DNA from: Armatimonadota bacterium
GTDB taxonomy: Bacteria; Armatimonadota; JAAZEB01
NCBI GenBank assembly: GCA_016199585.1
Contig: JACQGM010000334.1
Span: 1 to 40,016, forward strand
DNA length: 40,016 nt
Direction: 5' to 3'
Shown: piece after piece, positions 25,625-29,926 of the stretch
How the letters are laid out: each line of letters starts with the position of its first letter
Position numbering within the stretch: the first letter of the stretch is position 1
Position numbers and translations under genes: made by a program
Notes under the pieces: generated by a model
What the model saw: only the letters and a program-made list of their open reading frames with translations
Database searches by the model: none
Told to the model about the DNA's origin: nothing

Positions 25625-26500
25625 CTACTCGCCCAGCAGGCTCATCAGGGCGCGGGCGGCGGCGGTCAGGTGCTTGCGTCGGTGGTAGGCCAGGCCAAAC
25701 TGCCGCTGGATACGCACTCCCTCGATGGTCACTTCCTTCAAGACGCCCCGGGCCAGCTCGTCGGCAACCGTGAGGCGAGAGAGGATCCCGATGCCCAGCC
25801 CGGCCCGGATCGCCTGCTTGATTGCTTCGGTGCATCCCAGTTCCATCGCCACCCGGTAGGAGATACCCGCGCTTCTCAGGGAGCTCTCGGTAATGGCCCG
25901 GGTGCTGGATCCCGGCTCCCGGAGGATGAGCGACTCCGCGGCGAGGTCGTCGCCCCGAACCGCTTCGCGGTCGGCGAAAGGGTGGCCCGGCCTCACAACC
26001 AGCACCAGCGTGTCGGTCGCCAGCGGCCGCACTACGAGCTCGGGCGGGGCGCACGGCTCGCCCAGCACTCCGAAGTCGCTCTCGTTGGCAAGCAGCCAGC
26101 GCACGACCTGCTCGGTGTCTGCGATGCGCAGGAAGAGATCCACCCCCGGGTACCGCTGCTTGAGCCGTCCCAAGACGGGCGGCAGAACGAACGTGCCGGG
26201 CGTGGTGCTCGCGGCCACGACTACCCGCCCGCGCTCCATCCCCCGGAACTCCTCCATCGCCGACCGGGCTTCCGATGCGGCCATCAGCAGGACGTCGGCG
26301 TGACTGAGGAGGATGCGACCTCCCTCGGTCAGGTAGACCTTCCGCCCCATCTGCTCCAGTAGCTCCACGCCGATCTGTCGCTCCAGTTCCTTCACGTGCG
26401 CCGATACGCCGGGCTGACTGATGCGCAGTTCCTCGGCAGCGCGCGAGTAGCTGCCTCGGCGCGCCACCGCCTGGAACACGCGCAGTTGCTGCAGCGTCAT
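25625..26500 (-). CDS. LysR-family transcriptional regulator (CysL / selenium-metabolism-associated type)
   Basis: MTLQQLRVF...SYSRAAEEL.ISQPGVS HTH; ASTTPG..LP, REPGSSTR, EAIKQAI..GLG; divergent from selD. Confidence 0.92.
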   Translation of the reverse strand: MTLQQLRVFQAVARRGSYSRAAEELRISQPGVSAHVKELERQIGVELLEQMGRKVYLTEGGRILLSHADVLLMAASEARSAMEEFRGMERGRVVVAASTTPGTFVLPPVLGRLKQRYPGVDLFLRIADTEQVVRWLLANESDFGVLGEPCAPPELVVRPLATDTLVLVVRPGHPFADREAVRGDDLAAESLILREPGSSTRAITESSLRSAGISYRVAMELGCTEAIKQAIRAGLGIGILSRLTVADELARGVLKEVTIEGVRIQRQFGLAYHRRKHLTAAARALMSLLGE

Positions 26501-26520
26501 GGGTAATTCATTACCTTTCA

Positions 26521-26537
26521 CTTATACTAAAGATAAG
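26521..26537. promoter_or_regulatory. LysR binding box (T-N11-A dyad)
   Basis: CTTAT-ACTAAAG-ATAAG perfect dyad between lysR and selD; an extended -10 (TGcTACAGT, 26569-26577) follows toward selD. Confidence 0.7.
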
Positions 26538-26703
26538 AAACTGGTATTGGATAATTATACTCCATCTGTGCTACAGTGGGAAGTACAAGGAACGAGAGAT
26601 CGCAGGTGGGCGACGGACGAGCATCGTCCCTCCGCACGGGCGTGGACCGCGCGGGGGCCGCGCTTCGTGTCGGTCCACAGATAGTAAGAGAAAGGGTGAA
26701 GCG

Positions 26704-27768
26704 ATGACAAGCGAAGGGATTCGGCTCACGACGCTTTCGCACGGCGCCGGGTGAGCGTGCAAACTGAGGCCGGCGGACCTCGCGCAGGTACTGCGCCATC
26801 TGCCACCCATCAGCGACCCGGATGTTCTGGTCGGCGCTGCCACCGCCGATGACGCCGCCGTGTATCGTATCAGCGATGATCTGGCACTCGTGTTCACCGT
26901 GGACTACTTCACGCCCGTGGTGGACGATCCTTTTCTGTTCGGCGCTATCGCGGCGGCCAATGCCTTGAGCGACGTTTACGCCATGGGTGGCCGCCCGGTC
27001 CTCGCCCTCAACCTCGCGGGCTTCCCCGCGCGCGACCTGCCGCTTTCGGTCCTGGAGGACATCCTCCGGGGTGGCGCCGAAAAAGCTGTGGAAGCGGGCG
27101 TCGCCATCGTGGGTGGGCACACCATTGATGATGCCGAGCCCAAGTACGGCATGGCGGTGATCGGGTTTGTGCGCCCGGATCACGTGCTTGCCAACGTGGG
27201 CGCCCGGTCCGGCGATGCGTTGGTGCTGACCAAGCCGTTGGGAACAGGGATCGTGACCACCGCCGTGAAGCGCGGCGCGGCCCCCGCGGCAGCGGCGGAT
27301 GCGGCTGTCCGGACGATGGCCATGCTCAACCGTTCGGCGGCGGAGGCGCTGGCGCCCTTCACCATCCACGCATGCACCGATATCACCGGCTTCGGCCTCA
27401 TCGGGCACCTCTGCGAGATGGTGTCCGGCAGCGCCGTGGGGGCAGAGGTCTACGCCGGGGCCGTGCCCCTCCTTCCCGACGTGGTGCCGCTGGCTGAGAG
27501 CGGCATGGTGCCAGGCGGCACCTACGCGAACCACCAGCACTTCGGCACGCACGTTACCTGGGGGGCGGGAGTTGATGAGACCACGCAACTCATCTTGTGC
27601 GATGCCCAGACTTCTGGAGGGCTCCTGGTCGCCTTGCCGGAAGCGGAGGCGCCCGATCTGGTCGCTGCGCTGGAACGAGCCGGAACGCTTGCGGCCGTGC
27701 GGATCGGGCGGATCCTCGCTGCCCCGGAGGGAGCGATCCGGGTACGCAGCGCGAGGGATGAAGCGTGA
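26704..27768 (+). CDS. selD: selenide, water dikinase (selenophosphate synthetase), selenocysteine-containing
   Basis: ATG 26704 reads MTSEGIRLTTLSHGAG-UGA-ACKLRPADLAQVL, in frame with the ORF-track 26860..27768 protein (TVDYFTPVVDDP, AANALSDVYAMGG, GGHT, TDITGFGL, DAQTSGGLL). UGA at 26752-26754 occupies the catalytic Cys/Sec position (U-x-x-K). Confidence 0.96.
26765..26781 (+). other. putative bacterial SECIS hairpin
   Basis: GAGGCC-GGC-GGACCTC stem-loop; the G-initiated apical loop starts 17 nt after the UGA. Confidence 0.6.
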
Positions 27769-28535
27769 GTGGGGTGTGTGTCGCCCTGGGCTTCGTGGGC
27801 GGCGTCATCGCGGGGACGCTCGGGATCGGGGGCGGGATCATCATGGCGCCACTCCTGCTCTATGCGCCGCCGGTGCTGGGTGCAGGGCATCTCGATATGC
27901 GCGTGGTGGCCGGGCTGACCATGGTGCAGAGCCTGGCGGCCGCATCCTCGGGGGCTGTCGCCCACCGCCGCCAGGGGAGGGTTCAGCTCTCGCTGGTGGG
28001 ATGGCTCGGCGGCGCGGCCGGCGCGGGCGCTCTCGCCGGGGGCATCCTGTCCCACGCCGTGAGTAGTCGGACGCTGGCGATGTTGTTCGCCTCCCTGGCG
28101 CTGCTGGCGGTGGCATTGATGCTGCTGCCAGCGCCGCCGGCTGCGGACGAAGAGCACGTCCGTTTCAGCAAGGCGATCGGGATTCCCATGATGCTCGGCG
28201 TCGGCCTGCTGGGGGGCACGGTAGGCCAGAGCGGCGCCTTCCTCATCGTTCCGCTGATGTTGCGGGTCCTGCGAGTGCCGCTGCGCGCCACGGTGGGAAA
28301 CACCCTGGGCATCGTGTTCCTGACCGCCCTGGCAGGCGTGGCGGGGAGACTGGCGACGATGCAGATCGCCTGGCTGCCGGCGCTCGCGCTCGTGGCGGGC
28401 GCGTTTCCGGGCGCGCAACTGGGGGCCCGGCTGAGCGCGCGCATCCGAGGCCGCCATCTGCACGCGGCTTTGAGCCTGTTGATCGCGGCGACGGCGGCCA
28501 GGATGTGGTGGGACATTCTCGTTGGTCGCCTGTAG
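27765..28535 (+). CDS. TauE/SafE (TSUP) family membrane transporter
   Basis: Hydrophobic; GTLGIGGGII.AP and GTVGQSGAFLIVP repeats; overlaps the selD stop (GTGA). Confidence 0.9.
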   Translation: MSGVCVALGFVGGVIAGTLGIGGGIIMAPLLLYAPPVLGAGHLDMRVVAGLTMVQSLAAASSGAVAHRRQGRVQLSLVGWLGGAAGAGALAGGILSHAVSSRTLAMLFASLALLAVALMLLPAPPAADEEHVRFSKAIGIPMMLGVGLLGGTVGQSGAFLIVPLMLRVLRVPLRATVGNTLGIVFLTALAGVAGRLATMQIAWLPALALVAGAFPGAQLGARLSARIRGRHLHAALSLLIAATAARMWWDILVGRL

Positions 28536-28828: not shown

Positions 28829-29926
28829 ATGCCCAACGTTTTCGGCAGAGAGTTCACCCGGGAGGAGCTGGAGCAACGCACCGGACGCATGGACCAGGTC
28901 TGCGGCGTCCGAGCCGCCGTGCTCACCGACGGGCGCGCCGCCGGGGTTCGCGTCGCCGACGTCTGGACCGGCAGCGGCCTGGAGTTCACCGTCCTCCTCG
29001 ACCGCGCGATGGACATTGGCGCGGCGCGCTGGCAAGGGAAGTCCCTCTGCTGGCGCTCGTCGGTCGGCGATGTCCACCCGGCTTACTTCGAGCCGGATGG
29101 CATCGGCTGGCTGCGCAGCTTCGGCGGCGACCTGATCACCACCTGCGGGCTCACCCAGGCAGGGGCGGCGGGTGTGGACGAGGGCCGGGCGCTCGGGCTG
29201 CACGGCCGCATCTCGAACCTGCCGGCGGAGAACGTCCACCTGGATGCGGCGTGGGATGATGACGGCCACTACGTCGTCTGGGCCGCGGGGAGGGTGCGCC
29301 AGGCGAGTGTCTTCGGCGAGAACGTGGTCCTCACCCGGCGGGTGTTCACCCAACTCGGGGAGAACCGCGTCTGGATCCACGACTCGGTGCGCAACGAAGG
29401 CTACGAGCGCGCCGAGCACATGCTGCTCTATCACGTCAACCTCGGCTTCCCGGTGGTGGACGACGGCACCGTCCTCGTCGCGCCCAGCCGGGCGGTGACT
29501 CCCCGCGACGCCGAGGCCGAGGAGGGAAAGGAGGCCTACGCCGAGTTTCGCGGGCCGCGCCGGGGGTATCGGGAGAAGGTCTACTACCACGAGATGCGCC
29601 CGGAGAGCGACGGACTGGTGCCGGTGGCGCTCGTGAATCGCCATGCGAACGCGGGCGCCGGTTTTGGCGTCTATCTGTTATACGGGCATCGAGAGCTGCC
29701 GCACTTCGTCGAATGGAAGATGCTGGGGCAGGGAACCTACGTGGTGGGTCTGGAGCCCGCAAACTGCCTGGTGGAGGGTCGGGCGAAGGAACGCGCCGAG
29801 GGCAGGCTGCAGTTTCTGGAGCCGGGGGAACAAAGGAATTACCGGCTTGAGATCGGCGTGCTGCCCTCACTGCTGGAGATCGCCGCCTTCGAGGAGCGCG
29901 TGGGAGCGATAGCGCGTAAGGAGTGA
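28829..29926 (+). CDS. aldose 1-epimerase-like protein (DUF4432)
   Basis: DRAMDIG, WLRSFGG.L.TTCG, LHGRISN.PA, LYHVNLGFP, YVVGLEPAN motifs. Confidence 0.88.
   Translation: MPNVFGREFTREELEQRTGRMDQVCGVRAAVLTDGRAAGVRVADVWTGSGLEFTVLLDRAMDIGAARWQGKSLCWRSSVGDVHPAYFEPDGIGWLRSFGGDLITTCGLTQAGAAGVDEGRALGLHGRISNLPAENVHLDAAWDDDGHYVVWAAGRVRQASVFGENVVLTRRVFTQLGENRVWIHDSVRNEGYERAEHMLLYHVNLGFPVVDDGTVLVAPSRAVTPRDAEAEEGKEAYAEFRGPRRGYREKVYYHEMRPESDGLVPVALVNRHANAGAGFGVYLLYGHRELPHFVEWKMLGQGTYVVGLEPANCLVEGRAKERAEGRLQFLEPGEQRNYRLEIGVLPSLLEIAAFEERVGAIARKE

Follow-up and report, generated by a model that had tools for sequence, protein, structure and literature searches.

SelD of Haemophilus influenzae contains selenocysteine (Sec), and a 1996 paper on selD is said to have put forward the idea that the gene is autoregulated. 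In Escherichia coli, the minimal SECIS of fdhF begins 11 nt after the UGA. FdhA and SelD are described, in the part of PMC1794560 cited here, as the most widespread bacterial selenoproteins, and the SelD selenoprotein is recorded there in Geobacter, Desulfovibrio, Moorella, Clostridium, Rubrobacter and Symbiobacterium, among others. The bacterial SECIS model, in the form given by the cited section of a 2026 review, has a stem of 4-16 bp and a loop of 3-9 nt with a G in its first two positions (PMC13188914), together with a UGA-loop spacing of 16-37 nt and an energy of <= -7.5 kcal/mol (PMC13188914, Fig. 2 legend). In addition, the LysR_Se (HrsM) proteins are known as selenium-associated regulators (Lin et al., 2015, PMC5322559; review PMC9312934). 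A Sec-type SelD with an in-frame UGA is an already known and widespread arrangement, and it is against this background that the present locus is to be viewed.

The window analyzed here is a 40,016-nt stretch of DNA that makes up the whole of contig C287 in an Armatimonadota metagenome bin (5.38 Mb, 449 contigs, 80% complete, 3.4% contaminated). Direct reading of the letters places the start of selD (selenide, water dikinase; 26704..27768, forward strand) at ATG 26704 and its stop at TGA 27766-27768. When the in-frame TGA at 26752..26754 of the same strand is read as Sec (U), a single uninterrupted frame of 354 residues is obtained, with Sec at residue 17 and the next stop only at 27766-27768. 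The residues up to the TGA are M T S E G I R L T T L S H G A G and those after it A C K L R P A D L A Q V L R; codons 13-20 are CAC GGC GCC GGG TGA GCG TGC AAA, i.e., H G A G U A C K, and the N-terminal peptide spanning the UGA reads MTSEGIRLTTLSHGAG-U-ACK in this frame. A stop-to-stop list of open reading frames presents selD only as 26860..27768, with a GTG start and 302 amino acids, and naive ORF calling thus shortens the gene by 52 codons (354 - 302), exactly the loss that an earlier, sequence-only reading of this DNA had reported. Since the ORF caller cuts the gene short, codon 17 should be annotated as a Sec exception in this bin.

The translated frame yields full-length matches above the curated cut-offs of two NCBIfam models, namely TIGR00476 (394.5 bits, cut-off 125; residues 7-315, profile positions 1-310 of 311) and NF002098 (375.3 bits, cut-off 299; residues 2-347, profile positions 2-344 of 347). 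Both matches take in residues on either side of the UGA, and hence the residues preceding it belong to SelD. The structure of E. coli SelD (3u0o_A) was matched over residues 2-343 (E 1.8e-77), and in the ungapped N-terminal alignment, for which U17 was entered as C, U17 lies opposite Cys17 and K20 opposite Lys20, the glycine-rich loop being preserved as well. We take Cys17 and Lys20 to be residues with functional roles in the E. coli enzyme, Cys17 being the catalytic one. The protein is predicted to be a selenophosphate synthetase that uses ATP and selenide, and 26704..27768 is very probably an intact selD whose catalytic residue would be a Sec specified by the in-frame UGA. The sequence-only reading had proposed just such a SelD, and the continuous frame, the two family matches and the position of U17 agree with it.

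Concerning the recoding signal, the hairpin GCGCAG-GUA-CUGCGC at 26782..26796 (forward strand) is the likely apical part of the SECIS. It has 6 bp, a loop at 26788-26790 and an energy of -8.0 kcal/mol, lies 33 nt after the UGA and agrees with the consensus model outlined above in loop, stem, spacing and energy; its pair probability is 0.91-1.0 in all three windows folded. For this gene alone, both the MFE and the centroid structure give an extended stem-loop at 26764..26813 (forward strand), with 26782-26796 as its tip and CUGAGG/CC-UCAG and GGCGGA/UCUGCC as predicted lower helices. A search of the whole window with Rfam at gathering thresholds returned no match, the library being one that may not include a bacterial SECIS family. 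At 69% G+C, the preferred codons for L-A-Q-V-L-R would often produce this very hairpin by chance, and the case for the element therefore rests on comparative data.

Such data were drawn from alignments of Sec-selD genes anchored on their codons. Of the 24 Sec-selD sequences of relatives, 15 have a hairpin of <= -7.5 kcal/mol in the same register. Across 54 Sec-selD genes from several phyla, 81.0% of the cells in this register are paired against 71.6% in shuffles, double changes occur in 33 cells against 11.1, and none of the 500 shuffles reached the observed pairing or number of double changes, while registers slid along the alignment attained at most 52.5% pairing. On average, 82% of the six core pairs are formed in the 54 Sec genes compared to 50% in 42 Cys genes, and all six are present in 34/54 and 4/42, respectively, in two gene sets that are not phylogenetically independent. 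The compensatory changes turn Ala/Arg into Ser/Gly, Leu/Gly, Ala/Ser, Ala/Cys or Ser/Arg. For example, L-A-Q-V-L-R (GCG..CGC) is replaced by L-A-Q-V-L-C (GCA..UGC), L-A-Q-V-L-S (GCU..AGC/AGU) or L-A-Q-V-L-G (GCC..GGC), by L-S-Q-V-L-R (UCG..CGA) or L-A-E-V-L-R (GCGGAG..CUCCGC), and by L-S/L-Q-V-L-G-Q (UCC or CUC with GGG). According to these comparative data, the likely SECIS of SelD overlies the L-A-Q-V-L-R codons and forces coupled amino acid replacements, a clear case of an RNA signal that shapes a protein sequence. The register is not universal, being absent from a second selD in the bin (contig C46) and from the same-family relative G002, both of which carry a stronger hairpin approximately 13 nt nearer the UGA instead. 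Another member of the family, G001 (L035), has a Cys-type selD (TGT) whose SECIS register keeps an almost complete hairpin, GGCGCA-CGUGC-UGCGCC, with C in place of the loop G; this would seem to be a vestige of the Sec state after a change to Cys.

The alternative that survives best retains the selenoprotein and places its SECIS at 26766..26781 (forward strand), acting by itself or in a stack with the second hairpin. This is the structure that the sequence-only reading had singled out as GAGGCC-GGC-GGACCTC; it does exist, as GAGG-CC/GGC/GG-A-CCUC with 4 bp, a bulged A and 2 bp, but its role as SECIS was not supported. It starts 11 nt after the UGA, the same offset as that of the minimal fdhF element, and its loop GGC begins with G 17 nt after the UGA, within the range of 16-37 nt. 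However, its energy of -5.3 kcal/mol misses the threshold of <= -7.5 kcal/mol, and the surrounding 91 nt fold no better than shuffles (z = -0.48), so that taken alone it is no more than what chance provides in DNA of 69% G+C. Folding of 26755-26800 only (46 nt) gives it a probability of 0.8-0.96, but the value drops to 0.0 in windows of 79 and 111 nt. In pairing it surpasses slid registers (61.4% vs at most 47.8%) but not shuffles, either in the 24 Sec-selD sequences (54.2% vs 58.7%) or in all 54 (61.4% vs 62.0%), and no covariation above shuffles was detected. The loops of its counterparts in relatives, moreover, often lack a G (UAA, ACCCA, CCU). In its favor, many Sec-selD genes have a less conserved hairpin in this area, the register two columns upstream being 61.7% paired with double changes, and in the C46 paralogue the sole strong hairpin lies here (-14.6 kcal/mol, spacing 20). 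On account of these exceptions (C46, G002 and the less conserved first hairpin) we allow 26766-26781 a small chance of being functional; it is probably not the element bound by SelB, and 26782-26796 is preferred as the candidate SECIS.

A Sec-type SelD implies the Sec trait, as the sequence-only reading had predicted, and the corresponding genes were indeed found on other contigs of the same metagenome bin. The selA gene is located on contig C72 (561.9 bits) and selB on contig C368 (347.3 bits), the latter being incomplete since the contig ends after 584 residues; a tRNA-Sec (68.7 bits, Rfam) with the anticodon TCA (ARAGORN), i.e., UCA in the RNA, lies 1.4 kb from selB. These two contigs have a G+C content of 0.711-0.715, the mean for the bin being 0.693 (sd 0.012), and they rank 306 and 388 of 406 by tetranucleotide composition; as the contigs are short, composition neither proves nor disproves a common origin with the bin. 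The Sec-type selD marks the organism, which comes from a groundwater metagenome and has 69% G+C, as a selenium user. A search for selU (TIGR03167) gave no match in the 80% of the genome that the bin represents, which is not proof of absence.

The dedicated tRNA-Sec, selA and selB also bear on the idea that the UGA does not specify Sec and is read instead through a general reassignment of TGA or, by near-cognate reading, as Cys or Trp. Of the 3516 open frames with 400 or more codons, 2127 are closed by TGA, which makes it the commonest stop; it also terminates selD itself, and a general reassignment can thus be discarded. Cys is known to be inserted at Sec codons in other systems when selenium is scarce, and nothing specific to this locus favors near-cognate reading. 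Overall, we regard a non-Sec reading as very unlikely.

The distribution of the catalytic codon among relatives was informative as well. A match of SelD scale was obtained in 27 of the 40 same-phylum relatives searched, and the catalytic codon is TGA in 22 and Cys in five of them (TGC in G033, G008, G035 and G031, TGT in G001). All of these genes read through to approximately 342-350 residues with a conserved N-terminus. SelB exceeds the cut-off in 29/41 genomes. Of the 22 relatives with TGA, 21 are among these, and the one exception, G034, has a partial SelB match covering profile positions 104-576. TGA also occupies the catalytic codon in 30 of the 68 readable loci of other phyla, and relatives of this SelD in named genomes belong to Chloroflexota, Gemmatimonadota, Planctomycetota, Methylomirabilota, Actinomycetota and others. 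Altogether 96 loci could be read, 54 of Sec and 42 of Cys type, after 13 of 109 had been dropped because the motif search missed their N-terminus. The UGA of the window is consequently aligned with Cys in homologues, as would be expected for a Sec codon.

These counts weigh heavily against the view that the TGA is a nonsense allele or an assembly or sequencing error, in which case the gene would be a pseudogene or encode Cys. The assembly is a single, low-coverage metagenome assembly, and the contigs from public sequencing runs that can be compared with it have a depth of about 3, which leaves some room for error. Yet the same codon recurs in 22/27 relatives, in 30/68 loci of other phyla and in the C46 paralogue, the frame is otherwise unbroken and its product is scored as a full-length SelD, and a conserved SECIS lies downstream of the TGA. 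With regard to the TGC, TGT or nonsense variants that the sequence-only reading had envisaged, no alternative letter appeared in the public-run contigs. One of these, from a groundwater-metagenome run, covers 26618-26789 including the TGA with zero differing letters; the contigs (Logan contigs of patchy cover) possibly derive from the same sample as the window and so lend the TGA weak support. No RNA run containing this stretch was found among the public sequencing runs listed. The error reading is largely refuted and, in our view, hardly credible. Equally implausible is translation from GTG 26860 into an N-terminally truncated, Sec-free SelD-like protein with an untranslated upstream frame, which is what a plain ORF caller returns, given that the match to the SelD profile begins at the very first profile positions within the 52 upstream codons, which also encode the glycine-rich catalytic loop and Lys20, and that the N-terminus is kept in all relatives.

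Besides selD, at least two further selenoproteins are likely to be encoded in the bin, judging from predicted domains that span a UGA. In C153:2792-3295 (L132) an AhpC/TSA domain at residues 7-135 spans the UGA (U43), and in C394:7138-8331 (L131) a Thioredoxin_7 domain at residues 18-80 spans it in the motif C-E-R-U, with PDZ domains present in the same protein. A hairpin with a GUU loop is present in C394:7138-8331 26 nt past the UGA. Regions on C189, C32 and C255, three of the five examined, were rejected, as no Pfam domain extends across their U. The scans themselves were of limited power: the first, which employed a GC3 filter, produced 36 candidates, mostly off-frame or adjacent genes, and missed both selD genes, and the second, based on codon log-odds, produced 48 and again missed selD, indicating low sensitivity. 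A full-length match to an FdhA-like formate dehydrogenase alpha subunit on C342 contains no internal stop. On the reverse strand of C167 (2133-2405), a molybdopterin-oxidoreductase-like frame with one in-frame TGA shows a weak match to positions 384-477 of formate dehydrogenase alpha (E 2.3e-6).

The bin also carries additional selD copies. A second complete Sec-selD is located at C46:13280-14320 (L046:4281-5321); it is 59% identical to the first, shares the SHGAG-U-ACK motif, differs in the register of its SECIS and is sister to the selD of G002 with a support of 100/100 in a 28-row tree from which G031 was left out. A third copy is represented by a 3' fragment of selD followed by tauE at the end of C107 (11432-12341), with 72.7% DNA identity to 27607-28519 of the window and unrelated flanks. 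Each of the 27 relatives with SelD showed a single locus of SelD scale, and the bin, at 80% completeness, yielded no SelD of the Cys type. The three loci on C287, C46 and C107 may be either paralogues or a product of bin heterogeneity.

The neighborhood of selD in the window comprises two genes of potential interest for selenium metabolism. Divergently upstream, a LysR-family regulator is encoded at 25625..26521 on the reverse strand, and the best match of its product is the LysR_Se model NF040786. Because the score of 238.7 bits falls below the cut-off of 250, the protein is treated here as LysR_Se-like. A LysR with 44% identity is likewise found divergently upstream of selD in L125. The intergenic region between lysR and selD (26522-26703, 182 nt) has an A+T-rich half at 26515-26600 with a promoter-like site on the minus strand, followed by a G+C-rich selD leader with inverted repeats at 26612-26632 and 26642-26678. 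A scan of 26450-26760 for promoters and terminators detected only two promoter-like sites, both on the minus strand. No Rfam match beyond chance was obtained for the region at E <= 10 (26480-26900), a single FsrA fragment being dismissed as such.

Downstream, a TauE/SafE-family permease is encoded at 27765..28535 on the forward strand. Its residues 6-247 match Pfam PF01925 over profile positions 2-237 of 237 with 142.7 bits, well above the gathering score of 32.6. The GTG start of the permease gene overlaps the selD stop (GTGA), and the two genes are probably co-transcribed. The gene next after tauE encodes a DUF4432 protein (28829-29926); a 'tRNA-???' called by ARAGORN at 28881-28969 (89 nt, two-base anticodon) falls inside it, has no Rfam support and was rejected as a false positive.

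The link between selD and this permease extends to other metagenomes. A SelD match was recorded in 56 of 80 metagenome loci encoding TauE relatives with 35-52% identity. In the 40 loci where TauE was placed by tblastn, selD lies directly upstream on the same strand in 33 and downstream in seven; for the other 16, the position of TauE comes from the locus table only. SelD at TauE loci with a readable N-terminus was of the Sec type in 19 cases and of the Cys type in nine. In 21 of the 24 TauE loci without SelD, the sequence upstream of TauE extends for no more than 900 nt. Conversely, a TauE of this kind was present in 0/108 SelD loci of reference genomes. The link was not found in the literature searched, with the reservation that supplements or papers on the TSUP family may list it: TauE, DUF81 and COG0730 do not occur in the main text of PMC5322559, the supplements of which may list the link, nor do TauE, DUF81 and SafE occur in the body of PMC13188914, to which the same applies for its supplement. 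According to the cited part of the latter, a 2026 review, a specific selenium transporter of high affinity is still to be identified in prokaryotes (PMC13188914). The selD-TauE linkage offers a candidate for the transporter that reviews call missing, and we tentatively suggest, as a possibility rather than an expectation, that the selD-linked members form a TauE/SafE (TSUP-family) subfamily dedicated to selenium transport. If so, TauE would import selenite or other selenium species for SelD or export any excess, and together with the LysR_Se-like regulator it would constitute a selenium acquisition module in an organism whose two or three copies of SelD all depend on Sec, with none of the Cys type in reserve.

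The identity of the gene, the position of the UGA, the presence of the Sec machinery and the conservation and covariation of the hairpin are established. As regards the mechanism, we infer Sec insertion at the UGA, binding of SelB to 26782-26796 and a feedback loop. SelB in complex with Sec-tRNA(Sec) would bring about the recoding of the UGA at 26752-26754 to Sec, SelB being recruited by the SECIS stem-loop within the selD coding sequence, with its tip at 26782-26796, 33 nt downstream of the UGA. In the glycine-rich loop near the N-terminus, Sec17 would stand where E. coli SelD has its catalytic Cys17. The resulting enzyme would make the selenophosphate that SelA needs to form Sec-tRNA(Sec), and since SelA requires selenophosphate from SelD, the synthesis of SelD would depend on SelD activity. 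An enzyme that needs its own product in order to be made had been anticipated by the sequence-only reading, and the notion, which this reasoning supports, has already been published.

Compared to Sec-type bacterial SelD proteins in general, the present one shows no difference in kind. As in those, the UGA lies at the catalytic Cys/Sec position of an N-terminal glycine-rich loop, the SECIS is situated in the coding sequence just downstream, selA, selB and selC are present in the genome, and the protein would depend on the selenophosphate that it produces; Cys orthologues exist in sister lineages, some with hairpin remnants (G001). What sets the locus apart is the second Sec-selD and third fragment in the bin, along with the location of this copy between a LysR_Se-like regulator and a TauE permease. 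With E. coli SelD (PDB 3u0o) the protein is collinear over residues 2-343 and shares the SHGAG-x-x-CK loop and Lys20, whereas the E. coli enzyme has Cys17 where Sec is predicted here. Relative to the bSECISearch consensus, the G-U-A loop of 26782-26796, closed by G-C, fits N1-G-[G/U]-N-N2, and the spacing of 33 nt is near the upper limit of 16-37. In the E. coli fdhF element, the GU loop is about 14 nt closer to the UGA than in the window. Finally, the upstream regulator resembles LysR_Se (HrsM) in having it as its best NCBIfam match and in adjoining a gene of the Sec pathway, although its 238.7 bits remain under the curated cut-off of 250.
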